A stretch of 64,000 nt of DNA from Candidatus Omnitrophota bacterium (lineage in GTDB: Bacteria; Omnitrophota; Gorgyraeia; JABMRG01; JAFGKX01). The first letter of the stretch is position 1; each line of letters opens with the position of its first letter. The translations under genes were made by a program, and so were the position numbers. Positions 34,850-64,000 of this stretch are shown here, one piece after another. Below the pieces are notes generated by a model. The model was not told where the DNA came from. It saw only the letters and a program-made list of their open reading frames with translations, and made no database searches. The stretch spans positions 8,338 to 72,337 of the forward strand of contig JAZDPX010000045.1 in NCBI GenBank assembly GCA_043797125.1. The letters run 5' to 3'.

Positions 34850-34887
34850 GTAGCGGAGCCTTAAGGCTCCGCTACGGTTGTGGATAA
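34850..34887. repeat. Palindromic element copy E (core 34850-34875 + GGTTGTGGATAA); pyrF reads into it and stops at the central TTAA
   Basis: On the coding strand, TTA TCC ACA ACC GTA GCG GAG CCT TAA translates to L S T T V A E P stop. Confidence 0.9.
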
Positions 34888-35562: not shown

Positions 35563-35570
35563 AATCTTAA

Positions 35571-35608
35571 GTAGCGGAGCCTTAAGGCTCCGCTACGGTT
35601 GTGGATAA
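35571..35608. repeat. Palindromic element copy F (core 35571-35596 + GGTTGTGGATAA); pyrD reads into it and stops at the central TTAA; pyrF ATG 9 nt downstream
   Basis: PyrD and PyrF share an identical C-terminus STTVAEP encoded by the element. Confidence 0.9.
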
Positions 35609-37362: not shown

Positions 37363-37457
37363 AAAAGTTTAAAATGCAAAATGCAAAATTTCAATTCAAA
37401 ATTAAAAAAATTGAATTTTTGAATTTTTAATTGCAATTTTACATTTTTAATTTTTAA

Positions 37458-39184: not shown

Positions 39185-39199
39185 ATTAATCCGTTCTAT

Positions 39200-39225
39200 G
39201 TAGCGGAGCCTTAAGGCTCCGCTAC
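39200..39225. repeat. Palindromic element copy G (core only) between pyrC and flavodoxin gene
   Basis: GTAGCGGAGCCTTAAGGCTCCGCTAC followed by tgttttcattg, a divergent flank. Confidence 0.9.
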
Positions 39226-39230
39226 TGTTT

Positions 39231-41431: not shown

Positions 41432-41973
41432 TGCTTCTCACCTAACACAACTTCGTCTTTACCGTCGCATTCTTCTAATCTTACTTCCACCGCTTCTTTT
41501 TCAGATGTTGGGATATTTTTCCCGACATAATCAGGCCTTACGGGAAGCTCCCTGTGGCCCCTGTCTATAAGCACCGCCAGCTGTATGGACTTCGGCCTTC
41601 CAAAATCTATAATTTCATCAAGGGCGCAGCGTATGGTCCTTCCCGTATAAAGCACGTCATCTACAAGAACAATGTGCTTGGCGGTTACATCAAAATCTAT
41701 CTTGGTCTGGCGCACAATAGGTTGCTGCGCGACCGTGGTTAAATCATCTCTATATAATGTAATGTCCAGCACGCCAAAAGCTATTTTCTCTTTTTGTTTT
41801 TCCTCGATAACCGTTGCTATCCTTTTACCCAGATGCTCTCCCCTGTTTCTTATGCCTATAATAGCGACGTCTGTTGTCTTTTTATTATGCTCTATTATCT
41901 CGCAGGCTATGCGCACAAGCGCCTTGGATATGGCTTCTTTATCCATAATCTTTGATTTTTCTTTGATGGTCAT
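41428..41973 (-). CDS. pyrR: Bifunctional pyrimidine operon regulator / uracil phosphoribosyltransferase PyrR
   Basis: PRTase motif [12 protein letters not shown]. Length 181 aa. First gene of the pyr cluster. Confidence 0.9.
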
Positions 41974-47338: not shown

Positions 47339-50300
47339 TTACGCCTGCGCCTCTATCGCTTCTGTTGCCTGCTTTATCTCATCAAGGACCTTGCCGATTT
47401 CCGCTGAGGTAATCGGCGGCAGCATCTTAGCGATAACCTGGGCAACGCTCGGCTGGCTGGAGTGCAGCTTGCTTAAAGTATAAGCCAGCATAGCTTCAAA
47501 ACTTACCACGCCTTTATCCGGCTGCTGCGAAGTGATGAAAAACGATATGTTTCTGCCGGACCTGGCCTGGTTTCCTTCGTTAACAACTTCCGCTATGCGT
47601 TTTAAACCATTTTCTCCATAGCCCGGGTCGCAGATTACCCCGATTGCCGCGTAGTTGTTGTTTTCTTTCTGCTGCAGAAGCTCTTTTAATTTCTTTAGCT
47701 TGAGCGCGTCTTTTTCAACATCGTCCATCGTGTCGAACTCCGACTGGATATAACCCTTAACCTTGCCTCTTAGGAAATCATCTAGCTCAAGTACGTCGTG
47801 CCTGTCTAAGCGCTCGTTCAGCTCAACGACAAGCGATTCTTTCCTGTTTTTATCAGGGACTATTAATATGTTGAACTTGCCCCCGCTTCTCGCTGTTTGC
47901 ATGCGGGCAAGTTCGGCAATCCTATCTTTATCTTTTTCTGTTACAACAGACTCATATATCACCAGCGTATAAATATTTCGCGAGTTCTGGCTGAATTCAT
48001 CAACGCTGTATTGCTCGTTCGCTCTTTCGAGCATCTCGTCGCAGGCTTCCCTGAAAAGCTGCTCGTAACTTTTTGCTTCCGGCCCTGGCTTTGCCTCGGT
48101 GGGCGGCGGAGTTTCGTCGCTTAAAAAGCGCTCCGGATCGTTTTTAAAATATGTATTTTGTATCGTTTCTACCTCTTCTTTGGTAAGAATTCGCATTACC
48201 TTTTTATTTGCTGCATGATCAAATTCATACCTTGCCACCTCGCCGTTTCCGACAGGCACGACAAAAAGCGCGTCTTTAAGTATGTTCGCGATTTTAGAAA
48301 ATTTGGTGTAGCCGCTAAGTATGGCTTTGGAGTTCTGTAGATACTTTGTGCCCGCGATTGCCACAGCCTCAAGCGGGTCTATCAGGGCGTATTCTTCTTC
48401 GTTCGGATTTTCTAATTTTATTAAAGTTATCTTATTTTTTTCATAAACAGAACGCAGTTTTTTAAACTCATCCAATTCGCTGTCCATTATTGCCTGATCC
48501 ATGTTAGACGGCAGATAACAATACTTTTCGCCTCCTACTTCACGCAGCCATTGCCCATTCCAAATTTCGCGGAATTTTTTGTAGTCGTAATCATCGGGAA
48601 TATCGTCGATTTTTTTAATCTCGCCGCCGATTATAGCCCCGTAAAATCCCGCGGCCTTCGCCGCTTCTTTCCAGGCCCTGACTGACATTATCGGCTTTCC
48701 CGCGCGGTAGCTTGACATGGAAAACTTATGCACAAACTCATGCTCGATGGTAAGGAAATCTGCCGAGGCTAAATCCCACTGCACATTATCCATGCTTTCA
48801 AGGCCCGTTTGCCCTTTCACGCCATACGGAAGCTTTGTAGCTTCTGACCCTACTGGAACGCTGATAAACTGCCTTAGTCTCTTTGGGAACCAAGTAATGG
48901 CCTCTCTGGCCATATCAAGTTTTTCCTCGGGGATATATCTCATAATCTCCACGTTTTCTTCCTGCTTTGTCTGCTTAACAAAATTAAAATGCCTTATAAA
49001 TTCAACGACAGGCGCGTCTTTTTCGGGCACCTGGCTTATTACCTCGTCTAAAAGTTCGCTGAGCTTCTCGATATTTATTCTGCCGTTTTCTTTTTGAGCG
49101 CCTTGTGGATTGGATATATAGTCTTGCGCTAATTTTATCGCTGTATCAATAAGCCTGATCTTTTTAAGCAGCACTAATTTTACAAAATCGCGCGCGTTAA
49201 GGCCTGATAGCTTATTTATTAATACGCCGTCTTTTTCAAGGCCTATTCTTCGGGCTATTACTTTTGCCGCCTCAAAAGCGTCTCTTCTGTGGGCGTGCAT
49301 CTGGGGCATTTTTTGTTTTGCGTCCTCGCTAAGGCCGCAATACACAAGATAGCCGCTTTCAGCATGCCTTATCAGGCCTATTGTTTTATAAAAGTTATGA
49401 AGCGCCATCTCTTCTCTTAAAAGTTCTTTTGGCTTGGCGCTTTGCCTGCGCAGCCTAACGCTATCTGTGCCGGTAATACTCCTTAAAATAATAGCTGCGC
49501 CTCTTTTCTCTATTGCTAATATATAATTAAACCTGACCTCCCATGTTGAGTGCTCCGGATCATAGTTATCATAGCCGCCGAAGAAATAAGGCAGCCCGTC
49601 TTCCAGCGGGTGGATTGAAATAGTTTCTCCGGTTTTTAGGTTTATCTCTTTAAGCGCCAGTCCGCTTGCGTTTAACCGGTCTTTTTCTAAAACATACTGA
49701 TTATCTCCGGCAAAAATTATTATTGGCTCGCTATACGAGAATCTTATTTCATTTTTGCCCGTTAAAACAATTTCTTCGTCCGACAGCGGCGGGAACGCCG
49801 CCTTCCAGTATTCCGCCGCTTTTCTATTTTTCGCAAAATCCGCCCAGTTTTTAAGCATCCTTTCTATCTTTCCTCTGTTAGGCAAAAACTTTTGGTCTTT
49901 GTTTGCCGCCATCTCAAGCGCCAATTCGTATATAAAACCTAATATCTTAAAAGCTTCCCTGGCGTCATCTTTGTTGTTAATTGTCACGTCCTCGTGAACT
50001 TTTCCGGCTTTTTGTTTATATTTTTTCTTTATCGCGGCTTCTGTCAGTTCGCTGATTCCAAGCGCCTTAATTACAAAAGCCTCCAATGAATCCCAGTTTG
50101 CGTCGTTAACATTCGCGATTTGCTCTAATATAAATTCCCTCGCCGCCATTCTAATTTTACTTAACATTACGCCATAGTCTGCCTTAAGAGCGCCTGCCGC
50201 GTTTCTGGCGGCATCCATAAATACTTCGTTCTCGCCTAATGCAACGAGAACTTCCGCGTCTTTCTTAAGTGCGTCATCTGGAGTATTTATTATCCAGAGC

Positions 50301-53300
50301 ATCACAGCTTCGTGCGCATTCGCTTCAAGCGCGCCTGTTTTTACGAAGTTTCCGACAGCTTCCCTGGCCTTATCTTGTATGCCGGGGGTATCCCAGCGTA
50401 CGCCCCCCATGCCAGTCGGCAGCGGCGGGGCGGTGGGCGTTATCCGCGCTGCTATAAAGCAACTATCAATAGAATATTTCGGCTCATAACTGAATGGATG
50501 CGTTTTGCTTAAGGGAAGTATTTCGTAATTTTTTGAGGCAATCACGGTCTGAATTAGGCCAAGATTTGAGTAAATTGCGGCGCTCGTAGGTATAAGCACT
50601 GCCTCGCAGTTTAAGGCCTTGGCTAATTCCTTGGCGTAATCAATAAGCTTGTTATATATATCATCCGCGGCAACCCCGGTTAACAGGCTCGTGCTTGGGT
50701 TAATGCCGGGAAGAACAAGGTATTTTTTGTTGTTATCTTCTATAATTAACACATACATGCCGCCTTGGGCAATACCATTCGAATCAAATATGATTATATT
50801 GATAAAGTTGGGATTATTCCAAAGCCTTTCATCTTCTGCGGTGCATGCGCCCATATTCAGGCCTGCTACGCCGTGGGCTTTTCTCTTTGAGGCAACGAAT
50901 CTTAACGCAATTTTTTCTTGCGATTCCTGGAATTCATATTTCCTCTCCACTTCAGCCTGCATGTGTTCATATTCACTTCCCTGCAAGAGCTTGGTTATGA
51001 TGGCTGCTTCTTTGCCTTGCTGCATCTTAAAGGTTGTGGATTTTAATTCGTTTTGTATTGATTGCTCGTCTGTTTTATCTTTTACTTTTTCCCATATCGC
51101 ATCAGCCGTATAATCGTCATCTATTCTTAGCGCCTTCTTGATTAATTGTATCAGCTGACGCTCATCCTTCTTTTCGCGAGCTTTAAGTATGTTAAATACT
51201 GTTTTAGCGGCGCCTTCTGGTCTTTCTATTCTGACGCTGAGCATCTTGTCATACGACTCTTGATTTTGCTTTTTATACGCAGCAATACATTCACCGGCTA
51301 GATCTCGCAAGGTGTCCCCCATAAATACATTTATATCGATAATATTCCCAATTATTGCCAATGATTCTGGCAGCATCCTGTTGCCGGAACTCCTGTAGTA
51401 GCGATATAGTTGTTCCAATAAATCTTCCCTGACATTGTGTAGGCCCCCCATTTTCCACTGCTCAAGAAGCTGTCCGCCTAAACTGGCTGCTTTTTCTTTG
51501 TCCGGCGCTAACAAGGCTTCCCCGTTTACCTTGGCAATAACCTGCCGGATAGTTCGCCACGGACTAGCATCTAATGGCATGGACGGGTCCTTTAAGATAT
51601 ATTGGCCGACAGATATATCGATCGGTTTTGTTTCTTGCAAATGCGCTGGTATCTCCTTTGTGTCTTGCGGCCTGTCGGCTCTATTTTTGTACATCGCAAA
51701 ATAACTTCCCCTTTGGACGGTTACTGCGGGCGGGAATATATATAATAGCATTGTGCTGAACAACGGGTCTTTGTCTGCTTTGGCTGTGTCGCCTTCTAAT
51801 ATCTCATTATGTATGCGCTTGCACCTTTCTATGAGCTCATTTAGCTTCCTTGGATTGTTCTTATATGCTTCATATACGCTAACTATGGCATAGGGGTTTT
51901 CTTTTAGGAAAGCGTTGATTTGGTCTTTTTCTTTTGATATTGGTTTTGAGATTACGCCTTGTTTAACGCCCAAAAGGAGGAAGTTTTCCAATAAATCATA
52001 TGCCCTTATGCCGTGTGTTTGTATAAATTCTTTAATAAAAGCCAGGTCAGCCTCTGATTCTATCGCGCCAGCAGCAAACAGCTTTTTCGTAACTCCGAGA
52101 CAAAGGAACGCGCCCTGGCGCTGCTTAAAGAATATGGGTTTGAAAAATATTTTCCAGGATTGGGGCCATTTCCTCAATATGGGTTCTGCTTCATGTATCT
52201 GCTCTATTAGTTGATATTCAACGCCTGCGGATAATGTTAGCGCTTGTATTAAATCGTATCCTATTTTAATAAAGTCGTCTTTTGTATTAATAGCCGAGTC
52301 AAAAAGATAAAACATTCTGGCAAAATGTTCTGTATTTGCTGCTGTCTCTTTAAGGAATCCCGTTAGCTTTGCAAAAAAGGTTGGCTCTGCTATATCATCA
52401 AGCCCTGTCTTTGTTATTACAAAAAGGCCTATAAGAATACTGACAAGCCGTTCCTGTTTTAGGCCTGTGGCGGTTTTAAGTGCTTCTGTTACGCTGGCTA
52501 TCTCGTCCTGCGCTTTGGCAAATAACCGCTTATCAAATATTCCTACTCTTGCGTGCTCTGCGGTTATGGCTGCTAAGGCTTCGGCTCTATCAAGCTTATT
52601 GGTTATTTTTTCTGCTGTGGTTATCGCATCTTTAAACTTTCCTGCCTTTGTCTGCTCTGCTGCTACGCCTTTAAGGGCTAATGATTTATTATCGGTATCG
52701 GTGATGATGCTTGCTGTAGCGAGGGCGTCATTAAACATCCCTGCCTTTGCCTGTTCTATTGCCAGCTCCTTAAGGATGGCTGGTTTAAGATGAGCGCCAT
52801 CTATGGTTTTTGCTGTAGCGAAGGCATCATTAAACGTATTTTTTGCTTCATCAAGCATGCCTGCTTTTGCCTGCTCTGCTGCTATGCCTTGAAGGGCTTC
52901 TGCTTTATGTTTGGTATCGGTGATGGTGCTTGCTGTGGCGAGGGCGTCATTAAACGTATTCTTTGCTTCATCAAGCATGCCTGCTTTTGCCTGCTCTGCT
53001 GCTATCTCTTTAAGAGCTAATGATTTATAATAGGCGTTGGTTATGATGCTTGCTGTGGCGATGGCGTCATCCAGCTTGCCTATCTTTGCAAACCATTTTG
53101 CAATAACGATGAGGGCTTCTGGTTTGTCATCGGTATAGGTGCTGGTTTTTGCTGTGGCGAGGGCATCTATTAATGCTTTGTTTGCGTCATCCATCCTGCC
53201 TGCTTCTGTAAACCCTTCTGCGACAGCGGCGAGGGCTTTTGCTTTGTCAACGGCTTCGGTAATGGTGTTTGCTGTGGCGAGGGCATCTTCAAACATCCCA

Positions 53301-56300
53301 ACCCTTGCCTGCTCTGCTGCTATGCCTTGAAGGGCTTCTGCTTTATGTTTGGTATCGGTGATGGTGCTTGCTGTGGCGAGGGCATCATCAAACATCCCCA
53401 CCTTTGCCTGTTCTATTGATATCTTCTTAAGGGCTAATGTTTTATAATAAGCATTGGTGATGGTATTTGCTTTGGCGATGGCATCATTAAACGTATTCTT
53501 TGCTTCATCAAACATGCCTAGCTTTGCCTGCTCTATTGCTATCTCCTTAAGGACGGCTGGTCCACGATAAACGCCATCTATGGTTTTTGCTGTGGCGAGG
53601 GCATCTATTAATGCTTTGTTTGCGTCATCCACCCTGCCTATCTTTGCAAACCATTTTGCAATAACGATGAGGGCCTTTAGTTTGTCATCGTCATGGGTGA
53701 TGGTTTTTGCTGTGGCGAGGGCATCTATTAATGCTTTGTTTGCGTCATCCACCCTGCCTATTTCTGTAAACATTTCTGCGGCAGCGGCAAGGGCTTTTAC
53801 TTTATCAGCGGCATTGGCAATGGTTTTTGCTGTGGCGAGGGCGTCTATTGATGCCAAACAAAATATCTGCAGTAAAGAGCGCACGGTATCTGTAGCATTT
53901 TTAATTTTCTCTAATATCTTCTCCCTGCCCTGCTGAATTGCCCCTTGTGAATTTTCAATATCTTTTAAGAATGCCTCATTCTGCCCAAGCTTAACCAGCA
54001 CTTCATCGTCAATAAAGGGCTGCTCGTGTATTATCGCGAGAGCAAGCGCCTCGAATTCGCCGCGGCCTATTTCCTGGCCGGCTTTAAGTTTTGCTACTGC
54101 TTCTTTTGCCCTTTTAAAGGTGCGCTCATCCGGCACCATCCCGCCGTTGCCCAGCGGTATAATTTTACCCGCCATGTAAATCTGCTGCGCCAGTTCAACC
54201 GGTATGCCGGCTTTGCCGTTTTCATCAAGTTTGTCGTCTTCCAGGTAAGGCTTAACCTTTGTTTCATAATAATTAAGCCATTCCCGGAATAGCATCTTAG
54301 CGACTTTGTCTTCTTCCGGTTCGCCTTCTCTCTGCTTTGTAAGCGTTTGCTGGAAATCTCCTATTATAACCATACGTTCCTGAACCCTTGAAATCGCGAC
54401 ATTTAAACGCCGTATGTCTTTTAAGAATCCTATTTCCGGCTTCCCGGGGTTGCTTCTTACAAAATCGATTATAACAACCTTTTTCTCCTGGCCTTGTATG
54501 CTGTCAATGGTGGTAATTTCAAATTTTTTGTGGAATATTTTCTCAAGCTTTTTGTCAATGTAAGCCTGTTGTGCTTTATATGGAGTAACAATTATGAAGT
54601 CTTCTGGTTTGTAGTTATATTTCTGCATAAGCTTGGTTATTTCATTTACCACTTCTTCCGCGTTGCCTTTGTTCCAGAGAGACTTTCCGTATTCTGTATT
54701 TCGCCAGCCGCGCCTTTCTCTGTATTTATCCGCGTACCAGCGGTTGCCATCCTTGCCGTTTTGATTGTTTCGCAGCGTTGAGGTGTCTATTATTTTAAGC
54801 GTATCTTTGTCGAACGGCTCCCAGCCTCTTTTCTGAAGTTTCGCCTGCCACCACTTATGCTGTTTCCACCATTCTTTTTTCAGCTGCCTTTCGCATTTTT
54901 TCTGAAACTCTTCACCGTAAGAAATGGCCACCAGGCCGGTGTGTATGGGGTGTGAACGCCAGCAGGTAGACAAGGTGATGTGGTCGGCATATGCCGGGTC
55001 GATTATATTTATTAAGCCCGTGTTGTATAGGCCTGTCTGCTCTTTTGTTAAGCCGTATTTTTCCCCGATTACATCATGATCCGCCGGGAAAGGCCCGAGT
55101 TGGTTGGGGTCTCCTATTATAATGACTTTTTTCGCCAGCCTAAGCGCTATAAGCACCTCTGGTAAGGTTGGTTTACTTGCCTCATCAATTATAAGGACAT
55201 CGAACATCGCTTTATCAAAATTAATCGTTTTGTCCATATAAAATCCGACCGATGTTCCCGCCGCGATAAACGCGTCATTGTTTTCTCTGCGCTTTTCCTC
55301 AAAAGACAACAGATTTTCCTTGATTTGCGTAGAAAACTTTCTGACTTCGTCTATTGTGATATCGCCCATCTTGTTGCCAAGCCTTAAGATTGGAATGCTG
55401 CCGTCTTTCACCAGCTCTTCCAGGGCCTTATCCACGGCTACGTGAGTCTGGGCGGTAATAAGCACTCTCTCGCCGCGCTTAACAAACTGTTTTGCTATTT
55501 CAGTAACGACCTTTGTCTTGCCGGGGCCGGGCGGGCCTATCACAACCGTCAAATCCTGCTTGGAATTAAGGCATAGCTCGACAGCCTTTTGCTGGGATTC
55601 ATCGCCTTCGATTTCCTCGTCTATAAAAGCAAAGTCCGCGCCTAAGTCTAAGTCGTTGCTGTCTGTATCCTGCGGCCATTCCGCGGCCGGCATAAGCCCA
55701 AGCATTCTTTTTATTACGCTGTTGTAGTTTCTGCCGTTATTCTTTTTTATGTCCTCTATCAGGCCGTCTAATACTTTAAACTGCAGTTCGTAGGCTGCGA
55801 CGTTAGGATTTTCCTTGTTTTCAGCGGATGCCTTCTTTTCTGTGTCTATCAAAGCATCCAGCACTTTTATGTATGTCTCCAGCTCATCGAGCGCTTGTTT
55901 TTTGCTTTTTGGCTGAACTTTATTCTTTTTATACAGTTTTACGTTAGATGGCGGAAGTTTCCCGACGCCTGGGAAAATTTCGGCGGCGGTTTGCATCCAT
56001 TCGATTACGGAGAGCAAGCGCTGTTTTTTCTTTTGCGGCGTATCTTCTTTCTTTGCCAGGTCAATTATCATCTTCTGGCCTTGCGGCAATATACCCAACG
56101 GCGCCAACGATGCCATTTCCCAGGATGCCTTAATCAATGCTTGCTCGCCTATGTCTTGCGAAACTTCTTCCAGCAATTCCACCGCCGGCTTTAAAAATGC
56201 CTCTATATCTTTTGCAAACACGTTGTATGCGCAAATAAGCAATTCTCTTTTTGTTTCTACGCTTACTTCGGCATTGGTTTTAAGGTCTGCCGGCGGATAA

Positions 56301-59300
56301 AAAATTGTAAACACCCTTTCTATATCTTTTATGCTTAAGCCCTTTTCCGCGGCGAATAAAGAAAGCTTATCAAGAATGCCGTTGTAACCCCGCGTAGTGC
56401 CTGTTATTCCAAGCATGTTACAAAGCCCTGTGTGTATATTTTTCTTTTTTTGCTGTACTGACCGCTCAAGCAGTATGTTGTTTAGCATCATGGAATATGT
56501 TATGTTGGAATCTCCAAAAATATACTGTTGCAAAGGCAGAATGTCAAATTTTTGTTCTTCCGCTTGCGGCATCGCGGAGCGAACCACTTTTTCGTCGGTG
56601 GCATAAGTCTTAAACTCATAAAAAGTTTCGCCTAGTATTGTCCTAAGTTTAATGTCGCCGTATATGTCTGCTGCGCCCTCTTCAAAAACCAATAAGTGGT
56701 TTTTGATAAGAAAGCGGGCCAAAAGATTAAACACAGCTATGTGTTTTTCCATACCTTTATCTTCCGGCCCCGGCAAAAGCCCTGAATGCAAAGCAAAGAT
56801 TTTGTTGTCTTTTGATGAGAAGTTGAGAAAATCTCCAACGTTGCGGTCAAATGTACAAAAATTCAGCCTCTGGGCGTTTATAAGGCTCCTGAAATCGGCC
56901 AAAAAGACTTTTTGCCTCTCTCCTTGTACGCTGTTTTCTAATTTTGCAAGAATGCCGTCTAACGACAGTGGGGCCTGGCCCGTCAATGCCGCCTTGCCCA
57001 GAGCAGAGCCGCTTGCTTTGCCTTCTATGTTTAATAAAATATCGCCGTTTATCTTGATGATTTCCGTTACTTTTGTGTCTTTGCCCAGCTGGTCGGAATT
57101 TTCTTGTTCGGGATCCAATATGTTGATGATTGTTTCCTCGGGCGGCCTTTTATCCTGCGGAATGTCTTGTTTTGTAGCGTTGTTGGGCTTAGGAGGCTGT
57201 AGCTGCGATATATCAGCCTTTAGCTTTTTAATTTCCTCGTTTATCTTGTTTACCTTCGCAAGAAGCTCATCAACAAGAAGCTTCTTCTCAAGGCCTTTTT
57301 TCGCCGCTTTATCATCCGTAAGTAAATCAATAATTTTTCTTTTGGCCTTTATCGCTTTGTTCAAATGGCCGATGGCGAGTTCAAGCCTGCTGATTTTATC
57401 TTGCGTTTTCTTTTGTGTCTGGGATGAGTTTTGCGGTATTGTTGTTTTAGCCGCTATTTCCTCGTCGCGCTTTGCTTTATCCAATTCATCTTTGCACTCT
57501 TTCTCAAGGGCCTCAACCTTACCCCTTCTCACACATTCCTCTTGCGTTTCATAAATTCTGATTTCAAGCGCCTCGTCTTCCTTATCAAGCTCAAAGGCCT
57601 TGTTAAGAAGCTTAAACGCCTCTTGAATGTCTTGCGCCGTTTTGTTTTCCCTGCTTAAAAATTCTTCCGCCTTTTCCAAATACGCCTGTTTAAGGGTTGT
57701 TTTTACCGCGGTATCATCCGGGACAAGCGCGCTCGCTTTCTCGAGCAGCTCTATTGCCTTTTCATAATTTTTCTCTTCTATAAGCTGTTTGGACCGCGTC
57801 AGGTAGGCTTTTTTAAGCATGGCGATTAATGTTGCGTCGCCCGGGACCAACTGAAGCCCTTTTTCCAGAGAAGCTATTGTGTTGTCAAGATTTGATTCGG
57901 TTTCGTGTTGCTTTGCTCTCTTCTCATACGCTTCGCTAAGCGCTTTTGAAATATCTGTGTCATCCGCAGCAAGTTTGTGGGCATCCGTAAGCACATCTAT
58001 CGCTTTTTCATAATTTTTCTCTTCCATGAGCTTTTTTGCGTATTTTAAGCTCGCTTCTTTACGCAACTGCAGTATGCGGGCCCTGTTTGAATCAAACTTA
58101 TGCGCTTTTTCAAGCAAGGCTACCGCGCCTGCATAATCCCCTTTATCGATAAGCTGCCTACCATAATCTGAAGACACTGCTGTGAGCCTTTTGCTTAAAA
58201 GTTCTATGCCGTAACCGCTTAATTCATGCTTGATGGCAATCACAAGATAGTTTATTTCTTCGTCGGGCCTTTGCTCTTGCAGCGTAGAGCCTATTTTTTC
58301 TTTTAATTCTTTAATAAATTCATTATTCGGCTCTGCTTTGTGCAGGGCCTCTATTACACAGGAGCGCTGCTGTGCCGGCATTTGTCTGTCCATAAAGATT
58401 TCATCGATTAAAACGCTTCTTAGTTCGCTGGAGAAAGCATTCCTGTATAAATCGCGGAGAAAATCTGTTGTTTTTTCCGGGAATAGCCCTGAAAGATGCT
58501 TTAGCGCCTTCTTAATATCTACCGCTCCTTCTTTGTCATTGTTTAATATTTCTTTTACTCCGCCGTAAAAAAGCATTTTCGATTCAAAGGCTAATACAGC
58601 GTAAAATTCTTCCTCGCCGCATTTTTCTATATCGAGATCGCTGCTGGAAAATTCGTTAAGGGCCTCGAAAATACGCGACTGCACGAAGGTTGCCCTTGTC
58701 AGCGGCGCATCATCCCATAGCGGCTTTATCAGGTGGCTTATTTTGCTTATATCCCCTTCTCTCATTCTAAGTGAAGCTCCTATCATTTCTTCGTAAGCTT
58801 CGCGTCTATATTGTTTATTAAGTTCGATATGCAAAATATCTATGGCGTCTTTTATAATTTGTACCTCTGTTCCGCTGAATCTTTTGTAGGTTCGTATTTT
58901 ATCTAGCAACAATTTTGCGGTAACGCCGATTTTCTTAATTACGTCGCTAAAATTCTTTTCTATTTTTGAAAAATCATTGCACTTGGCAATAATATCTAAA
59001 AGGTTGACATGCAAAAAGGGTTCATCCGGATAAAGCTTAATGGCTTTTCTTGCATATTTTTCCGCTTCGTTAAGATTACCCGCAGTTGCTAAACCTGCTG
59101 ATGTTGCAAAATAACTATATGCATCTTCAATACTTTTAATATCTTTGCCTTGCGTCATTTGGGACAAAAGCCTGGCGCTTGGCTTAAATGTTCTGTTCTT
59201 GATATCACCTTGTTTGCCAGCGGTTTTGATAATCTCTTGTACCTTAAAATGCAATTGCGTAAAAGCTTTTTTGTCCATGACCATCTTAATGTCGCTTGTC

Positions 59301-62300
59301 AGGCCCATATCCGCTCTGCCGAACCACACCCTGGATACAAGCCTACTTAGGTAATGGCTGTCTTGTTCCCATCCTTCGGGCCACTGTTTTTGATCTTCTT
59401 CTTGCAAAGAATTTTTTGCTTCATCGCTTATATATACTCTCCCCAGGGATTTAAATGCCGAAGATATGTTTTTTCTGATAAAGATTTCTATTGTACGGTC
59501 ATCGATAAGTTGGAACTTCAAGTATCTTGGATTTTGTCGGTCATCGCCAACAAGATAATGGCTTATCTCGTGCAATATGGCTAATGGGTTATCTATTAGG
59601 AATTTCTCAAGAGCTATAAGGTTGTGTTCTGCGCAGGTAAAACCAAAAAGGTCTTTATTTATTTTGTCAAAACTGTAAAGCCGCAGTCCTAATGGTATAG
59701 CTGTATCCAGAACAGAAAAAAGCATATTTTTATAGTCGGGGTTGGGGAATCGCAGCCCTTCAAAAACATCTTTAACTGCGCTCGCCGGGTCTGCGTCTAC
59801 TTTGTTAATAACAAGCTCTTCAAATATTTCTTCTGGTTCGAATTTGCTTGGTAATATACAAACGGGCACAACCGCCCGGCTCTCATCGGCTTCGGTAAAT
59901 TTCAGCTTGTCTGTTTGCGCGTATGCCTCGTTTCCGCCTATGCCCTGGTGTTCGCTAAGTTCTAGGTGTACGCCAGCATGCCCCGCCGTATCGGCTTCTT
60001 CATAATTGACCTTAAAATAACCTTCGTCATCCAGGCGCATCAGCACACTATAGATAGCTTTATTTATGGTTTGGCCGTATTTTTCCTTTATGCTTGCCCA
60101 TATCTTTTTTAGGGTTTCTTTTGAGCCGTTGGCATTGTATTCCCTTGTCTTGTCGCGGGCTGCGTCAACGGAATCCGCTACTTTTACTATGCTGTCAATT
60201 TTTTTAAGCAGCGGTTTTTTGCCATATATGCTCTTGTCGGCTGAATGATGATTTACAATCAGTTCAAATACGCCATCTTCTAGGTATTCAGTAACTCCAT
60301 ATGCTTTTAATATTGTTTCTGCATTAGCCGCGTGTTCAGTTTTTCTTGTTTCCTCATTTTCATCCAGGCTGCCGTTTTTAATTGTCAGGGCAAAAGTCTC
60401 ATTATCATAAAGTTTGCCGATATCATGCCACAAGCCTGCCTGGCGCGCCTTTTGTATGGCCCTGGAACCTTTGTCAGAACCCATGCCCATTTCTTGCGCG
60501 ATTTTTGCCGCAAGCCTGCTGGTGCGCCTGGCGTGCTCAAACAGCGCTTGTATCTGTTCAGCGCTGGCATTTATCTTATTATCTTTGGCAACCTGCTTAT
60601 ATACGGCGAATGCCTGCTCTTCTTTTATTCTATTTGTAAGATCTTCGTCCGCTTCGCCCAGCGTGGCTTTCCCAAGAGCGCGTAAATAATAATGGGTTCC
60701 CCTGCCCGGGTTTTCTTTTAATTTTGTGTTGAGCCAGGACAGGATTTCGTCGTTTAATCGCACCTTGCCTATTCCCGTATGGAGCAACATACCTTTTTTT
60801 CTTATGACTAAATCGTTTCCTTCGGTATGGAATTTGATTTTGTTCTGCGCGCAAATATATTCTTGCAGTTCGTGCAATAGGGCGGCGGGGTCTTGAGAAA
60901 ACTTTTCGTATATAGCAATGAGTTTGTCCTTTGGCAGGGCTTTGCCGAAGCAGTCTTCGATAAGCAGGTCGAATGTATGCAAATCCGGAGGAGATTTTTC
61001 GCGCAAGGCCAAAAGGCTTAAAATCACATCTTTATGGGAATTCTTTATGCGTTGGTTGGTTTTAACCCAGCTTATTATGGTATCTATATCCATTTTGCCC
61101 TGATGGAAAAGTTTTCCCGCATGTTCTCGGCCGGCTCTGTCTGTTATTATTATTTTCTCTTCTTTCGGGTTTACGCTTACAATCCCGCCGCGCTTGCCCA
61201 TTTGCGCGGGGCCGCTGCCGACATTAACCAGCTCGCTTAAATTCGCATCCAGCACCACATCCTGATACGCTAACACGTCGTGTTTGTAGTACTGCTGCCA
61301 GCTGCTCAAAAGGCCGGCCATCTTCCTTGCCTCTTTGGAAGCGCCGGCTTTGCTTAATTTCACGAAATCTCCGATAATGATTAAGTGCTCTTCTGCCATT
61401 GAAATTGCTAAAGTCAGCCGCTGGTGAAGTCCTTGTAATTGGCCTGGCTTGCTTCCTCTGAGGTCTAACACAACCACCTTGTTTTTCTCAGGCAAGCCAA
61501 ACCCTTCATGCCTGTACTCGGTGACAATTGTGGTGATGTCTTTATTGGCATAATCGTATTTGTCTATAAGCCTGTCTATTTCATCTGAGAGCCCTAATGG
61601 TTTGTCTGCGACATCAATTATTTTCAATACATCCTCACCAAAAGGTTCCCAATCTCTTGGGGCGAGTTCTTTGTCGCCGTATGAGAGCGACACAAGGCCC
61701 GCGTGAATCGGGTGCAGCTGGTGGGCTGTGGATAGCCTGATTATATCAGCTCTTTCATATATTTTATCTATGGGCAGGCCCTGATTATAGTAGTCTATTT
61801 GTTCTTGCGTTGTTTTCTTCACGGTTTTGGCCTCATTGGGTAAAATGCCGCGCGGCGGCATTTGCTGGCTGTCATATATGATGATAACTCTTCTTGCGCG
61901 CGTCATTGCCTGGAGTATCTCAGGGTAGGTTGCTTCCTCCGCGTGTATAAACGCAACATCAAAAGCTTGTGGTACATCCCTAAAAAGAAGTTTATCATCA
62001 AACCGCCTTTTTAACGCTTCGCCCTCTTTATACTCTTTAATCTCGCGATCCGTATCCATGCTTTGAAATTTTCCGAAAAGCGCGTAGCCTTTTCTGCGCT
62101 CACCCACCTCAAGTCTTTCATTAAATAAATCAAGGTTTTTATCCGGTATGCGATTATTGGCTGTAGCAACTATTTTGGCTGTATTACTGAATTCATCCGG
62201 GTTGTTTCCCAATCTTAAAACCGGCGCTTTTTTATCTTTGGGTGCCTTTTCATCGTTTACCAATTTTTCCAAATATCTATCCACAAGCCTGTGCGTTGCT

Positions 62301-64000
62301 CCGTAGAAAAATACCTTCTCGCCTCTATTAACCAGCTGCCTTATGGATTCCGCAACAACTTCTTCGCTGTCGCAGCCGCGCGGCGCCTCTAAAAGGAGTA
62401 AATTACTTACAAGCGAGAGCGCTACTGCCGTCTGGCAGGAGGCGTCTTTTGCAATGTCCTGGTTCATAAGTTTAAGGTTTTTAACGGCATCGGATAAATT
62501 GCTTTTACTAATATTTCCTTTTTCTGTTTCTAAACCGAGTATTCGGTTTATTGCCCAATGCTTGGTTGAATTTTTCTTTTTATCTGTAATATCCTTGTGC
62601 AGTGACTTCAGAGCTTCATAACATATTTTGCCGTTATCGCCTAAAGCCTTGAGTATTGCTTCAAAACTGTTAAGCTCCGCGTAAAGCTTGGGCCTGTCCT
62701 CTTTTTTAAGCTGGCCCTGGCCTTTTTCGTGAAGATGCAGTGCTTCTTCCGGCAATTTGTTTGTGTTTTTGGTTTTTTCAATGCCTTTTTTAATCCAGGC
62801 TATCTTTTTATTTATAACATCCAGGGGCTTATCCTGCTGGGCAGAGTCGATTACTATCTTTTGCAATCCCTTGTCGCTTAGATTCAGGCCTATCAGATCC
62901 CAGGAAAGCGGAATTAAATCGTTAATTCCTATTGCTTCTTTGAGCTGCCCCAGCGCTTCTAACGCAGGGGTTAAAGAGGCTTCTTTTTTGCTGCTTAACG
63001 CCTTATGGATAATGCCTATTAGCTGGCCTTTGTGTTTTGTATCCAGGGTTTTTGTGTCCAGGTTTAGGCTTTTCTTAAAATTGTTTAACACGCCTGTGGC
63101 GTCATCTGTTTTCAGGCCTTTGTTAATGATATAGGTGCATAGCTTAATAAGCTCATATTCAACCTGGTTGTTTGCTTCGGGGATGCTGAATGCCTGGCAT
63201 AATTTCTTATATGCCCTGCTATATTCAAGAAGAAGCTGCTGCCCCATAATTTCTAAATTGTCATGGTCGTCTTTGCCTTCTTCAGCTTTTAGCTGTGGGT
63301 CGATGGGGATTTCGATATCCTTGGTAATGCCCTCGCCTGTGATAAACAGCGTGCCTCCTATATAGAGGGTTTCCATCTGGCCTTTTTTAATGCGGCATTT
63401 TATTGCCTCTATAACTGTGTTTATGTCTTTTTGCGGGTCCGGGTAATGCGGGCTGGAAATGAGCTTTTTATCTAAGCAAAACATGTTTTGCTCTCCTGAT
63501 GAGAAGCGCGACAGACCTAATGCGGGGCCGGTGAAGACATACATTGCCGGAGGCGAGGCCTCAAAAAGCGCAAGGAATGCCTCCAGCGCCTCTTTATGCT
63601 GCGGGTTAATCTCTATTATTGTGTTTAACGCGGCGGTCAGCTCGCCGGGTTTTTTATTAATAAGCGCTATTTTTTCTTCGGAATTATTACTGGTATCCGC
63701 TATTTTAAGATAGCGGTCGCTCCCCTTTATAATAAGTTCTTTTACAGCAAGGTTAGTCCCGTCAATAGCTTCTTGTATGGGTATTATTTCTTCTTCCTGT
63801 GCTTTGTCCTGCTTTTCTTCCTTTGCTGGTTTTGACTGCAGCGGTTTGCTTTTCTCTTTGGGTATTAGCGGCAAGATGCGGCTAATTGAGGTCTTTGATT
63901 CTTCTAAGCCTTCTTTTGCCTTTTTCAAATCTTCTGCCGCTATGGTGCCTTGCGGGTATTTCTCTGTGATTTCCTCGTATTTTTTCTTTGCTCTTTTAAA
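47339..64000 (-). CDS. Giant multidomain protein (>=~5550 aa, N-terminus beyond right window edge): degenerate SF1 helicase-like module + HD phosphohydrolase domain + intact Upf1/DNA2-like SF1B helicase + coiled coil + TPR repeats + tandem 35-36 aa helical repeat array + HExxH-containing C-terminal region
   Basis: Single uninterrupted minus-strand frame. Stop is at 47339-47341. The ORF-track M at 63928 is a TTG, and the frame stays open to the window end (FKRAKKKYEEITEKYPQGTIAAEDLKKAKEG...). Motifs by approximate location. Degenerate helicase (~61360-62400): HPIHAGLVSLSYGD and LIIIGDF, but a P-loop-less FFYGATHRLVD. HD motif GLWHDIGK (~60425). Walker A VVIGPPGPGKTKV (~55510-55540), DEAS-box VLIIDEASKP, GDPNQLGPF, CWRSHP, TIDSIQGQE, and motif VI RRLNVAISRVQERM (~54360-54415). 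TPR-like NYEKAID...LYPDEPFLHVN (~57650-59100). HExxH in TIEHEFVHKF (~48728-48742). Confidence 0.85.
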   Translation of the reverse strand, partial: FKRAKKKYEEITEKYPQGTIAAEDLKKAKEGLEESKTSISRILPLIPKEKSKPLQSKPAKEEKQDKAQEEEIIPIQEAIDGTNLAVKELIIKGSDRYLKIADTSNNSEEKIALINKKPGELTAALNTIIEINPQHKEALEAFLALFEASPPAMYVFTGPALGLSRFSSGEQNMFCLDKKLISSPHYPDPQKDINTVIEAIKCRIKKGQMETLYIGGTLFITGEGITKDIEIPIDPQLKAEEGKDDHDNLEIMGQQLLLEYSRAYKKLCQAFSIPEANNQVEYELIKLCTYIINKGLKTDDATGVLNNFKKSLNLDTKTLDTKHKGQLIGIIHKALSSKKEASLTPALEALGQLKEAIGINDLIPLSWDLIGLNLSDKGLQKIVIDSAQQDKPLDVINKKIAWIKKGIEKTKNTNKLPEEALHLHEKGQGQLKKEDRPKLYAELNSFEAILKALGDNGKICYEALKSLHKDITDKKKNSTKHWAINRILGLETEKGNISKSNLSDAVKNLKLMNQDIAKDASCQTAVALSLVSNLLLLEAPRGCDSEEVVAESIRQLVNRGEKVFFYGATHRLVDRYLEKLVNDEKAPKDKKAPVLRLGNNPDEFSNTAKIVATANNRIPDKNLDLFNERLEVGERRKGYALFGKFQSMDTDREIKEYKEGEALKRRFDDKLLFRDVPQAFDVAFIHAEEATYPEILQAMTRARRVIIIYDSQQMPPRGILPNEAKTVKKTTQEQIDYYNQGLPIDKIYERADIIRLSTAHQLHPIHAGLVSLSYGDKELAPRDWEPFGEDVLKIIDVADKPLGLSDEIDRLIDKYDYANKDITTIVTEYRHEGFGLPEKNKVVVLDLRGSKPGQLQGLHQRLTLAISMAEEHLIIIGDFVKLSKAGASKEARKMAGLLSSWQQYYKHDVLAYQDVVLDANLSELVNVGSGPAQMGKRGGIVSVNPKEEKIIITDRAGREHAGKLFHQGKMDIDTIISWVKTNQRIKNSHKDVILSLLALREKSPPDLHTFDLLIEDCFGKALPKDKLIAIYEKFSQDPAALLHELQEYICAQNKIKFHTEGNDLVIRKKGMLLHTGIGKVRLNDEILSWLNTKLKENPGRGTHYYLRALGKATLGEADEDLTNRIKEEQAFAVYKQVAKDNKINASAEQIQALFEHARRTSRLAAKIAQEMGMGSDKGSRAIQKARQAGLWHDIGKLYDNETFALTIKNGSLDENEETRKTEHAANAETILKAYGVTEYLEDGVFELIVNHHSADKSIYGKKPLLKKIDSIVKVADSVDAARDKTREYNANGSKETLKKIWASIKEKYGQTINKAIYSVLMRLDDEGYFKVNYEEADTAGHAGVHLELSEHQGIGGNEAYAQTDKLKFTEADESRAVVPVCILPSKFEPEEIFEELVINKVDADPASAVKDVFEGLRFPNPDYKNMLFSVLDTAIPLGLRLYSFDKINKDLFGFTCAEHNLIALEKFLIDNPLAILHEISHYLVGDDRQNPRYLKFQLIDDRTIEIFIRKNISSAFKSLGRVYISDEAKNSLQEEDQKQWPEGWEQDSHYLSRLVSRVWFGRADMGLTSDIKMVMDKKAFTQLHFKVQEIIKTAGKQGDIKNRTFKPSARLLSQMTQGKDIKSIEDAYSYFATSAGLATAGNLNEAEKYARKAIKLYPDEPFLHVNLLDIIAKCNDFSKIEKNFSDVIKKIGVTAKLLLDKIRTYKRFSGTEVQIIKDAIDILHIELNKQYRREAYEEMIGASLRMREGDISKISHLIKPLWDDAPLTRATFVQSRIFEALNEFSSSDLDIEKCGEEEFYAVLAFESKMLFYGGVKEILNNDKEGAVDIKKALKHLSGLFPEKTTDFLRDLYRNAFSSELRSVLIDEIFMDRQMPAQQRSCVIEALHKAEPNNEFIKELKEKIGSTLQEQRPDEEINYLVIAIKHELSGYGIELLSKRLTAVSSDYGRQLIDKGDYAGAVALLEKAHKFDSNRARILQLRKEASLKYAKKLMEEKNYEKAIDVLTDAHKLAADDTDISKALSEAYEKRAKQHETESNLDNTIASLEKGLQLVPGDATLIAMLKKAYLTRSKQLIEEKNYEKAIELLEKASALVPDDTAVKTTLKQAYLEKAEEFLSRENKTAQDIQEAFKLLNKAFELDKEDEALEIRIYETQEECVRRGKVEALEKECKDELDKAKRDEEIAAKTTIPQNSSQTQKKTQDKISRLELAIGHLNKAIKAKRKIIDLLTDDKAAKKGLEKKLLVDELLAKVNKINEEIKKLKADISQLQPPKPNNATKQDIPQDKRPPEETIINILDPEQENSDQLGKDTKVTEIIKINGDILLNIEGKASGSALGKAALTGQAPLSLDGILAKLENSVQGERQKVFLADFRSLINAQRLNFCTFDRNVGDFLNFSSKDNKIFALHSGLLPGPEDKGMEKHIAVFNLLARFLIKNHLLVFEEGAADIYGDIKLRTILGETFYEFKTYATDEKVVRSAMPQAEEQKFDILPLQQYIFGDSNITYSMMLNNILLERSVQQKKKNIHTGLCNMLGITGTTRGYNGILDKLSLFAAEKGLSIKDIERVFTIFYPPADLKTNAEVSVETKRELLICAYNVFAKDIEAFLKPAVELLEEVSQDIGEQALIKASWEMASLAPLGILPQGQKMIIDLAKKEDTPQKKKQRLLSVIEWMQTAAEIFPGVGKLPPSNVKLYKKNKVQPKSKKQALDELETYIKVLDALIDTEKKASAENKENPNVAAYELQFKVLDGLIEDIKKNNGRNYNSVIKRMLGLMPAAEWPQDTDSNDLDLGADFAFIDEEIEGDESQQKAVELCLNSKQDLTVVIGPPGPGKTKVVTEIAKQFVKRGERVLITAQTHVAVDKALEELVKDGSIPILRLGNKMGDITIDEVRKFSTQIKENLLSFEEKRRENNDAFIAAGTSVGFYMDKTINFDKAMFDVLIIDEASKPTLPEVLIALRLAKKVIIIGDPNQLGPFPADHDVIGEKYGLTKEQTGLYNTGLINIIDPAYADHITLSTCWRSHPIHTGLVAISYGEEFQKKCERQLKKEWWKQHKWWQAKLQKRGWEPFDKDTLKIIDTSTLRNNQNGKDGNRWYADKYRERRGWRNTEYGKSLWNKGNAEEVVNEITKLMQKYNYKPEDFIIVTPYKAQQAYIDKKLEKIFHKKFEITTIDSIQGQEKKVVIIDFVRSNPGKPEIGFLKDIRRLNVAISRVQERMVIIGDFQQTLTKQREGEPEEDKVAKMLFREWLNYYETKVKPYLEDDKLDENGKAGIPVELAQQIYMAGKIIPLGNGGMVPDERTFKRAKEAVAKLKAGQEIGRGEFEALALAIIHEQPFIDDEVLVKLGQNEAFLKDIENSQGAIQQGREKILEKIKNATDTVRSLLQIFCLASIDALATAKTIANAADKVKALAAAAEMFTEIGRVDDANKALIDALATAKTITHDDDKLKALIVIAKWFAKIGRVDDANKALIDALATAKTIDGVYRGPAVLKEIAIEQAKLGMFDEAKNTFNDAIAKANTITNAYYKTLALKKISIEQAKVGMFDDALATASTITDTKHKAEALQGIAAEQARVGMFEDALATANTITEAVDKAKALAAVAEGFTEAGRMDDANKALIDALATAKTSTYTDDKPEALIVIAKWFAKIGKLDDAIATASIITNAYYKSLALKEIAAEQAKAGMLDEAKNTFNDALATASTITDTKHKAEALQGIAAEQAKAGMLDEAKNTFNDAFATAKTIDGAHLKPAILKELAIEQAKAGMFNDALATASIITDTDNKSLALKGVAAEQTKAGKFKDAITTAEKITNKLDRAEALAAITAEHARVGIFDKRLFAKAQDEIASVTEALKTATGLKQERLVSILIGLFVITKTGLDDIAEPTFFAKLTGFLKETAANTEHFARMFYLFDSAINTKDDFIKIGYDLIQALTLSAGVEYQLIEQIHEAEPILRKWPQSWKIFFKPIFFKQRQGAFLCLGVTKKLFAAGAIESEADLAFIKEFIQTHGIRAYDLLENFLLLGVKQGVISKPISKEKDQINAFLKENPYAIVSVYEAYKNNPRKLNELIERCKRIHNEILEGDTAKADKDPLFSTMLLYIFPPAVTVQRGSYFAMYKNRADRPQDTKEIPAHLQETKPIDISVGQYILKDPSMPLDASPWRTIRQVIAKVNGEALLAPDKEKAASLGGQLLEQWKMGGLHNVREDLLEQLYRYYRSSGNRMLPESLAIIGNIIDINVFMGDTLRDLAGECIAAYKKQNQESYDKMLSVRIERPEGAAKTVFNILKAREKKDERQLIQLIKKALRIDDDYTADAIWEKVKDKTDEQSIQNELKSTTFKMQQGKEAAIITKLLQGSEYEHMQAEVERKYEFQESQEKIALRFVASKRKAHGVAGLNMGACTAEDERLWNNPNFINIIIFDSNGIAQGGMYVLIIEDNNKKYLVLPGINPSTSLLTGVAADDIYNKLIDYAKELAKALNCEAVLIPTSAAIYSNLGLIQTVIASKNYEILPLSKTHPFSYEPKYSIDSCFIAARITPTAPPLPTGMGGVRWDTPGIQDKAREAVGNFVKTGALEANAHEAVMLWIINTPDDALKKDAEVLVALGENEVFMDAARNAAGALKADYGVMLSKIRMAAREFILEQIANVNDANWDSLEAFVIKALGISELTEAAIKKKYKQKAGKVHEDVTINNKDDAREAFKILGFIYELALEMAANKDQKFLPNRGKIERMLKNWADFAKNRKAAEYWKAAFPPLSDEEIVLTGKNEIRFSYSEPIIIFAGDNQYVLEKDRLNASGLALKEINLKTGETISIHPLEDGLPYFFGGYDNYDPEHSTWEVRFNYILAIEKRGAAIILRSITGTDSVRLRRQSAKPKELLREEMALHNFYKTIGLIRHAESGYLVYCGLSEDAKQKMPQMHAHRRDAFEAAKVIARRIGLEKDGVLINKLSGLNARDFVKLVLLKKIRLIDTAIKLAQDYISNPQGAQKENGRINIEKLSELLDEVISQVPEKDAPVVEFIRHFNFVKQTKQEENVEIMRYIPEEKLDMAREAITWFPKRLRQFISVPVGSEATKLPYGVKGQTGLESMDNVQWDLASADFLTIEHEFVHKFSMSSYRAGKPIMSVRAWKEAAKAAGFYGAIIGGEIKKIDDIPDDYDYKKFREIWNGQWLREVGGEKYCYLPSNMDQAIMDSELDEFKKLRSVYEKNKITLIKLENPNEEEYALIDPLEAVAIAGTKYLQNSKAILSGYTKFSKIANILKDALFVVPVGNGEVARYEFDHAANKKVMRILTKEEVETIQNTYFKNDPERFLSDETPPPTEAKPGPEAKSYEQLFREACDEMLERANEQYSVDEFSQNSRNIYTLVIYESVVTEKDKDRIAELARMQTARSGGKFNILIVPDKNRKESLVVELNERLDRHDVLELDDFLRGKVKGYIQSEFDTMDDVEKDALKLKKLKELLQQKENNNYAAIGVICDPGYGENGLKRIAEVVNEGNQARSGRNISFFITSQQPDKGVVSFEAMLAYTLSKLHSSQPSVAQVIAKMLPPITSAEIGKVLDEIKQATEAIEAQA
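52440..53880 (-). repeat. Tandem array of ~14 in-frame ~105-108 nt repeats inside the giant gene, encoding a 35-36 aa helical unit (consensus approx. ALATAKTITxxxxKxxALxxIAxEQAKxGMxDEAKNTFNDAL)
   Basis: The nucleotide-level repeat is directly visible: gcttgctgtggcgagggcatcattaaacgtattctttgcttcatcaagcatgcctgcttttgcctgctctgctgctat... recurs with small variations. Confidence 0.85.

Follow-up and report, generated by a model that had tools for sequence, protein, structure and literature searches.

The window analysed here, a stretch of 64,000 nucleotides from a Candidatus Omnitrophota bacterium (NCBI GenBank assembly GCA_043797125.1, contig JAZDPX010000045.1, positions 8,338 to 72,337 of the forward strand), bears on its minus strand a giant open reading frame (ORF) coding for a modular protein, in which a probably inactive and a predicted active Upf1-like helicase of superfamily 1B (SF1B) are placed on either side of an HD phosphohydrolase. 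The ORF occupies 47339-63928, with 5,529 codons counted from its first start codon at 63928; its frame continues without a stop to the window end at 64000, and the 24 codons upstream of 63928 read FKRAKKKYEEITEKYPQGTIAAED. As there is no in-frame stop between 63928 and 64000, the N-terminus may fall outside the window; hence, the TTG at 63928 is not necessarily the true start and the full length may exceed 5,529 residues. All the motif strings quoted in a preliminary description of this DNA were found on the minus strand at the places given there, within this single 5,529-codon ORF. From its N-terminus the giant protein displays an unannotated domain of about 200 residues that we term X, a helical linker, the predicted pseudo-helicase (module 1), a second X, the HD domain, a third X, and a helical region with TPRs. 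There follow a fourth X, another helical linker, the predicted live helicase (module 2), an element of about 115 residues, and Ala-rich repeats of 40 residues; the C-terminal part consists of a conserved block of 650 residues (C1), a weak J-like segment, and about 900 unannotated residues. The features that concern the helicases, the HD domain and domain X are:

47339-64000, minus strand: giant ORF (5,529 codons from 63928; frame open to the window end)
63251-63760, minus strand: domain X copy a (residues 57-226; jackhmmer E 3.8e-20, alignment)
62429-63271, minus strand: helical pre-helicase linker 1 (residues 220-500; self-BLAST to residues 2473-2780, E 4.9e-16 to 2.6e-20)
61217-62494, minus strand: module 1, predicted pseudo-helicase with an Upf1-like SF1B fold and dead motifs (residues 479-904; homology, motif loss, predicted fold)
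60554-61246, minus strand: domain X copy b, nearest to the family consensus (residues 895-1125; AlphaFold model)
60077-60553, minus strand: HD metal-dependent phosphohydrolase (residues 1126-1284; Pfam HD, NCBIfam HDIG, ligand set)
59216-59839, minus strand: domain X copy c, the sole copy here with HExxH, as HEISH (residues 1364-1571; alignment, self-BLAST)
56423-57133, minus strand: domain X copy d (residues 2266-2502; jackhmmer E 1.6e-21)
55589-56512, minus strand: helical pre-helicase linker 2, paralogue of linker 1 (residues 2473-2780; self-BLAST)
54194-55651, minus strand: module 2, predicted live Upf1-like SF1B helicase (residues 2760-3245; Pfam, PDB, MkoA, column conservation)

Module 2 matches the Pfam families AAA_11 (E 3.9e-25, 89.5 bits) and AAA_12 (E 2.3e-31, 109.3 bits), both over the cut-off of 27, and its closest solved relatives in a PDB search are IGHMBP2 (E 6.8e-30), DNA2, Upf1/NAM7, and Sen1. 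It displays the motifs GPPGPGKT, IIDEAS, GDPNQLGP, CWRSHP, TIDSIQGQE, and RRLNVAISRV, the corresponding strings on the minus strand being GPPGPGKTKV (55537-55508), IIDEASKP (55192-55169), GDPNQLGPF (55114-55088), CWRSHP (54964-54947), TIDSIQGQE (54511-54485), and RRLNVAISRVQERM (54412-54371). An alignment of 120 homologues found with module 2 yielded 64 columns with a conservation of at least 80%, of which module 2 retains 52, including every invariant catalytic one: K2804, T2805, D2915, E2916, G2939, D2940, and Q2943, and likewise Q3145, G3146, E3148, R3174, N3176, and R3181. The canonical motifs that had been ascribed to this module are thus borne out by the alignment. This C-proximal copy, which appears to keep every motif for NTP binding, hydrolysis and coupling, is predicted to be a live motor; judging from family-level knowledge of activity and polarity, it most likely acts as a translocase or helicase that uses ATP to move 5'->3' along single-stranded RNA or DNA. 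The clade to which it belongs is marked by the variants NYRSHP/CWRSHP and TIDSYQGGE, and its members are proteins of 0.5-4.8 thousand residues; P0179, one of two members that were looked up, is named Candidatus Omnitrophota. We also considered module 2 as an orthologue of IGHMBP2 and rejected this because its score against NCBIfam TIGR00376 (194.9 bits) lies under the cut-off of 348.9.

Module 1 is 31% identical to module 2 (BLASTP E 3e-42) and directly matches the live helicases of other proteins (E 1.6e-26 to the protein P0141), while on its own it reaches Pfam AAA_11 with 27.4 bits, barely over the cut-off of 27. An AlphaFold (AF2) model of residues 220-905 has a mean predicted local distance difference test (pLDDT) score of 66.9, with values of 75-95 in the RecA-like core. 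The best Foldseek matches of the module 1 model are IGHMBP2, Upf1, Sen1, SETX, ZNFX1, and DNA2 (E 2.4e-13 and below, probability 1.0), a fold match that corroborates homology and is no proof of it, since the model rests on an alignment of live helicases. By sequence and predicted fold, module 1 is best taken as a true helicase homologue, and the helicase relationship that had been claimed for it stands.

Module 1 retains just 25 of the 64 conserved columns, and its catalytic positions are all lost. Its Walker A equivalent is EAPRGCDSE (residues 514-522; 62389-62363), where alignment of A515-PRGCDS-E522 with G2798-PPGPGK-T2805 of module 2 places S521 and E522 at the positions of the Lys and Thr. 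In motif II (FI-HAE) the Walker B Asp corresponds to a gap and the Glu to H662; motif III reads YDSQQMPP; motif IV reads AHQLHP, with Gln in place of Arg; motif V is unalignable, with about 60 residues of RecA2 being absent; and in motif VI (QRLTLAISMA) T839 replaces the Asn and M844 the Arg finger. The strings noted earlier lie on the minus strand at 62311-62279 (FFYGATHRLVD), 61948-61928 (IHAEEAT), 61876-61853 (YDSQQMPP), 61714-61673 (HPIHAGLVSLSYGD), and 61384-61364 (LIIIGDF). The first of these had been read as a degenerate Walker A; it is actually motif Ia, aligning with LITAQTHVAVD of module 2. The Walker A is degenerate all the same, its true equivalent being the above EAPRGCDSE at the upper edge of the interval that had been assigned to the module. 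With the Lys and Thr of Walker A, the Asp-Glu of Walker B, motif V, and the Asn and Arg of motif VI all lost, module 1 is predicted to be incapable of ATP hydrolysis, i.e. to be a pseudo-helicase, in agreement with the inactivity suspected in the preliminary description.

The duplicated block exceeds the helicase core, with residues ~57-896 corresponding to ~2266-3237, and includes domain X and the helical linker. Segment-wise self-BLAST relates residues 220-896 to 2473-3237 with E down to 7.5e-29, jackhmmer places X copies a and d ahead of the two blocks, and linker 1 is helical in the AF2 model, at low confidence. In a neighbour-joining tree the two modules are sisters (bootstrap 85), the longer branch being that of module 1, and both are nested in a clade whose helicases come from long proteins. 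They have in common the derived states HPIH-GLV--SYG, WEPF, and LKIID, where other members of the clade instead have HPLIAGLVSELFYEG, WEDF, and LSLRVID. These sequences are most simply explained by a duplication inside the gene in this lineage, after which the first copy diverged rapidly. We posit that a block of about 850-950 residues, comprising domain X, the helical linker, and the Upf1-like SF1B helicase, was duplicated within the gene, and that the N-proximal copy (residues 479-904) then evolved faster, lost its catalytic residues, and had its RecA2 half shortened. By analogy with other machines considered below, it was most likely retained for a structural role, or for binding nucleic acid or a partner, next to the live motor.

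No orthologue closer than about 35% identity was recovered from the GTDB species representatives (with a single-protein query) or from JGI metagenome contigs, the latter giving a single match at 30% identity; a search of the GTDB species representatives with the clade alignment returned generic helicases only. A word-index search with residues 480-1300 gave no match, and one with residues 1-3300 gave a single Dna2 match, the candidate list being swamped by repeats. Among 150 representative hits, the combination of X with a helicase or with an HD domain, and likewise the presence of two helicase modules, is seen only in this giant protein. In all 47 of the other hits with a helicase the motifs are intact or nearly so, and no second example of a dead-plus-live pair was found. 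The partners of the same helicase type vary in these relatives, namely PALP, HAD, and HD in P0179, HATPase_c and an epimerase in P0141, and HTH in P0155.

The HD domain does lie between the helicase modules, as had been described, and the full H...HD...H...HH...D ligand set can be read from it (H1132, H1168-D1169, H1199, H1227-H1228, and D1252), with the strings GLWHDIGK at 60436-60413 and NHHSADKS at 60253-60230 on the minus strand. It scores 44.2 bits against Pfam HD (cut-off 22; E 2.8e-11) and 28.2 bits against NCBIfam HDIG (cut-off 27.6). When 1.84 billion representatives were scanned in full with HMMER, 18 of the 27 nearest relatives of the domain were found to display the HHExxDGxGYP signature of the HD-GYP domains; the GYP motif is absent from the present domain (NHHSADKSIYG) and from its two closest relatives, which are stand-alone proteins of about 250 residues. 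Searches against PDB sequences matched only HD-GYP-type proteins, none significantly, and Cas3-HD models gave weak matches (PADLOC, E 2.9e-07 and 1e-05; TIGR01596, 23.8 bits against a cut-off of 43.45). Hence, the earlier designation as nuclease-like finds no specific support. The domain is best regarded as a phosphohydrolase, predicted to be active, that is related to the HD-GYP domains and lacks the GYP motif; candidate substrates would be a cyclic or linear nucleotide, or a nucleic-acid end. Two narrower assignments were tried and rejected: an HD-GYP phosphodiesterase proper, in view of the missing GYP motif and a Pfam HD_5 score of 23.6 bits against a cut-off of 27.2, and a Cas3 HD nuclease, in view of the sub-threshold cas3_HD score, a helicase of SF1B rather than superfamily 2 (SF2), and the lack of a cas or CRISPR context.

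The most widely shared part of residues 480-1300 in the full HMMER scan is neither the helicase nor the HD domain, and instead corresponds to residues ~895-1125, i.e. domain X. The four copies of X in the giant ORF, recovered by jackhmmer with E from 3.8e-20 to 6.5e-85, precede the pseudo-helicase, the HD domain, the TPR block, and the live helicase, respectively; with each copy being N-terminal to a different module, the protein has the appearance of beads on a string. We found 116 occurrences of X in 77 of the 150 representative hits, mostly in proteins of 1-7.7 thousand residues, and the names of eight X-bearing top hits that were looked up, where given, are those of Candidatus Omnitrophota or Elusimicrobiota metagenome-assembled genomes. 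The domain is characterized by the conserved motifs SPPxxYTFDxLxEDLFGFAS, NPxALFHExxEYL, and HYLLRALQRExFG. Within the H-E-x-x-(E/H) motif, the His is present in 109 and the Glu in 111 of 114 copies, and the third position is Glu in 96 and His in 13. Its AF2 model is confident (pLDDT 89.8; predicted template modelling score 0.84) and places this motif on a helix after a beta-sheet. X matches no Pfam family and has no PDB relative at the sequence-profile level, nor any significant structural neighbour in the PDB (best E 0.17) or BFVD (best E 0.048); the sub-threshold fold hints are to minimal metallopeptidases, SprT-like proteins, and domains of phage polyvalent proteins. We consider X the most promising lead for follow-up: should it serve in processing or docking, this would account for the organization of the long proteins of Omnitrophota and provide a sequence marker for their module boundaries.

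Taken as a whole, we think it rather likely that the giant protein is a single very long modular chain of the type found in Candidatus Omnitrophota; most likely, a lineage-specific pseudo-helicase is kept in this multi-enzyme giant beside a live motor, and the two helicases and the HD domain may be functionally coupled. The dead paralogue, the live helicase, the complete HD domain, and the intragenic duplication have good support, whereas helicase activity, its polarity, and a role for the dead module are predictions. Several points weigh against this reading. The AF2 model of module 1, being built from an alignment of live helicases, is biased to that fold. As no orthologue was found, purifying selection on module 1 is not measurable, and the module could be a decaying relic kept merely by its in-frame position. 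The N-terminus, and any localization signal in it, may lie beyond the window end. Moreover, X domains stand between the HD domain and both helicases, about 1,500 residues separate it from the live one, and in relatives both this helicase type and the HD domain have unrelated partners, which makes functional coupling doubtful; helicase and HD domain may cooperate, but this we only infer. The same intervening X domains and variable partners argue for a looser modular arrangement. Hence, the dedicated three-part machine implied by the likeness to defence and RNA-surveillance systems, which the preliminary description had drawn, is not established: X copies separate the three domains, unrelated enzymes stand beside the same helicase type in relatives, and the likeness itself comes down to family-level helicase similarity (E 6.1e-64 to MkoA), and neither a PLD nuclease or kinase nor cas genes or a CRISPR array accompany it. 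The idea that module 1 is a functionless, degenerating duplicate, remaining in frame only since a stop would truncate essential downstream parts, would account for its long branch, the loss of all its catalytic motifs along with about 60 residues of RecA2, and the want of a second such case among 48 helicase-bearing relatives. We nevertheless hold it to be very improbable: the module still has its fold-defining positions (the 25 of 64 columns), is recognizable against distant live helicases at E 1e-26, and has a core that folds confidently in the model, whereas a neutral relic this old should have gathered deletions.

A minor but real possibility is that the modules are independent of each other, with unrelated enzymes each preceded by an X that serves in docking or in zincin-like self-processing, the HD domain being a cyclic-nucleotide phosphodiesterase and the dead helicase a spent duplicate. 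The placement of four X copies ahead of different cargo is in keeping with this, as are the unrelated companions of X elsewhere (HTH, HHH, Metallophos, and FHA domains, and, by source names, methyltransferase and kinase), the near-invariant H-E-x-x-(E/H) motif with the weak metallopeptidase, SprT-like and polyvalent-protein fold hints, and the predominance of HD-GYP domains among the closest HD relatives. However, X has no significant fold match, its third motif position is predominantly Glu rather than the His of zincins, there is no evidence of cleavage, and both the duplication of an entire X-linker-helicase block and the maintenance of 5.5 thousand residues in frame suggest use as a single chain. 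A bolder form of this thought gives X the role of a new zincin-like (HExxE/H) module that cuts or docks at module boundaries in a polyprotein comparable to the phage 'polyvalent proteins'; the released pseudo-helicase, HD domain, and live helicase would reassemble as an RNA-degrading unit, maybe used on the host or prey of these episymbiotic bacteria. We attach very little probability to it. Also quite improbable, in our estimate, is a function in defence against phages or mobile elements, in which a Mokosh- or HELZ2-like RNA-sensing helicase would act with the HD domain as effector nuclease and the dead helicase as sensor or regulator. Upf1-like helicases do function in Mokosh (bioRxiv 10.1101/2022.05.11.491447), a system that also has a PLD nuclease and, in type I, a Ser/Thr kinase, and in HELZ2 a nuclease is flanked by two Upf1-like helicases (PMC10516660); module 2 matches the PADLOC models for MkoA (E 6.1e-64) and MkoC (E 5.8e-21), and the HD domain matches Cas3-HD models as given above. 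Yet the MkoA match is confined to the generic helicase core, the Pfam scan of the ORF shows neither a PLD nuclease nor a Ser/Thr kinase family at E<=0.01, the Cas3_HD score stays at 23.8 of the 43.45 bits required, and no CRISPR array is seen. Further, the neighbouring genes (glmS, a methyltransferase, lpxA, and pyrR/B/C) are those of housekeeping functions rather than of a defence island, and the remaining ~4,000 residues of the giant protein are without defence matches. Defence of the Mokosh or Cas3 type is thus rejected as a function, because the features of these classes are missing and the neighbourhood is unfitting.

The juxtaposition of a pseudo-helicase with a live motor is a recurring solution in nucleic-acid machines: the Brr2 cassettes, RecC/RecB, and AddB/AddA each keep an inactive module of the helicase fold beside an active one in assemblies that include a hydrolase or nuclease. 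Brr2 belongs to SF2, while RecBCD and AddAB belong to superfamily 1A and carry PD-(D/E)xK nucleases, and the paired modules are separate subunits or directly adjacent cassettes. The present case differs in having the SF1B fold, a pair that arose by intragenic duplication, and an HD domain as hydrolase. To our knowledge, it would be the first dead-plus-live pair of the SF1B/Upf1 type to have arisen by duplication within a single bacterial giant gene. The arrangement is a variation on known themes and no new kind of machine.

The individual likenesses to known systems are each partial. All the motifs of IGHMBP2, Upf1/NAM7, Sen1/SETX, and DNA2 are present in module 2, and module 1 is predicted to share their fold, but their CH, R3H, or nuclease accessory domains are not detected here and the clade is bacterial. 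In the human interferon-induced HELZ2, both Upf1-like helicases are active ATPases and the centre is formed by an RNB 3'-5' exoribonuclease with cold-shock domains (PMC10516660). The giant protein resembles it in combining helicase, hydrolase, and helicase on one polypeptide, with both helicases being Upf1-like, SF1B, and apparently paralogous; it differs in that the first helicase is predicted to be dead, the centre is an HD domain with no RNB, and the modules are about 1,900 residues apart, with X domains and TPRs between them. There is no evidence for common descent of the two architectures. With MkoA and MkoC of Mokosh, the likeness is that of the helicase core, whereas PLD, kinase, and defence island are absent; the giant protein as a Mokosh system was rejected on finding the helicase match only. 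Like Cas3, the protein has HD and helicase on one polypeptide and weak Cas3-HD matches, but the helicase of Cas3 is SF2, whereas here it is SF1B and the HD domain is nearer to HD-GYP.

Studies of giant proteins in Omnitrophota describe proteins of at least 10-30 thousand residues with many transmembrane segments and SecA-DEAD, dockerin, or C39 domains (bioRxiv 10.1101/2023.11.21.568195; 10.64898/2026.06.07.730766); neither mentions an Upf1-like helicase or an HD domain. The present protein shares with these the modular mix of enzymes, TPR-type repeats, and large unannotated stretches, and relatives that have X or belong to the helicase clade bear Omnitrophota names, but its visible 5.5 thousand residues are without transmembrane segment, signal peptide, or SecA domain. 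It falls outside the Archaeovorin and dockerin types, measuring at least 5.5 against more than 30 thousand residues and having no SecA-DEAD, dockerin, or C39 Pfam families. A hydropathy scan of the visible part revealed no convincing transmembrane helix or signal peptide, the highest 19-residue value being 1.6, in a segment with charged residues. The giant protein shows in a concrete case, amenable to dissection, how long and largely unannotated Omnitrophota proteins are put together, with enzymatic modules alternating with a recurrent, confidently folding domain X.

The other features of the giant gene and the gene next to it are:

57701-58153, minus strand: TPR repeats (residues 1926-2076; Pfam TPR_14 E 9.7e-15, TPR_19 E 1.9e-13)
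52349-53821, minus strand: Ala-rich TPR-like repeats of about 40 residues (residues ~3370-3860; 120-nucleotide tandem repeats, Pfam TPR_12)
50396-52348, minus strand: conserved block C1, function unassigned (residues 3861-4511; 40% identical to P0156, BLASTP E 1.5e-154)
45639-47234, minus strand: downstream gene coding for 531 residues with a hydrophobic N-terminus, 104 nucleotides past the giant ORF

The Ala-rich region contains about a dozen repeats of the pattern DALATAKTI...AEALxxIAxEQAKxG, and their organization as 120-nucleotide tandem repeats with 79-85% identity suggests a fairly recent expansion. Block C1 has no Pfam family and no credible PDB match; polyubiquitin matches in the PDB were summed across repeats, with a single-unit E of about 0.15, and were treated as spurious. 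P0156, a metagenomic protein of 1,973 residues, bears domain X besides its C1-like part. The element of about 115-130 residues occurs twice on the minus strand (E 5e-8 between the copies), at 53846-54193 (residues 3246-3361), directly behind the live helicase, and at 50060-50455 (residues 4492-4623), ahead of the J-like segment. The latter, at 49925-50059 on the minus strand (residues 4624-4668), scores 20 bits against Pfam DnaJ (cut-off 27.8), has HED where the HPD motif is expected, and is the only Pfam-scan match in the C-terminal 2,200 residues. Searches with residues 4630-5529 gave no match. Near residue 5200 (47700-48400, minus strand), this unannotated region contains an HExxH motif, HEFVH, distinct from the HEISH of X copy c.

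The 531-residue downstream protein matches no Pfam family and is a possible partner of the giant protein. Beyond it on the same strand lie glmS, a TP_methylase gene (rsmI-like), lpxA, pyrR, pyrB, and pyrC. No CRISPR-like array and no rRNA, tRNA, or Rfam match was found in the window. Two further regions on the strand of the giant gene (23600-30200 and 34271-41973) bear what by eye, from the sizes of the ORFs and a single sequence resembling subunit E, looks like a V-type ATPase operon, and a pyrimidine biosynthesis cluster, in which pyrR, pyrB, and pyrC are supported by Pfam and pyrK, pyrD, pyrF, and pyrE were assigned by eye. A second very long ORF of at least 1,967 codons, at 2-5902 on the minus strand, is cut by the left edge of the window. 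It combines a hydrophobic N-terminus that by eye resembles a signal peptide with a two-partner secretion (TPS) domain, DUF7948, and 10 SBBP beta-propeller repeats, and contains a 201-nucleotide tandem repeat of 9.8 copies at 1034-2969; by these domains, its product is predicted to be a TpsA-like exoprotein secreted by the two-partner route.

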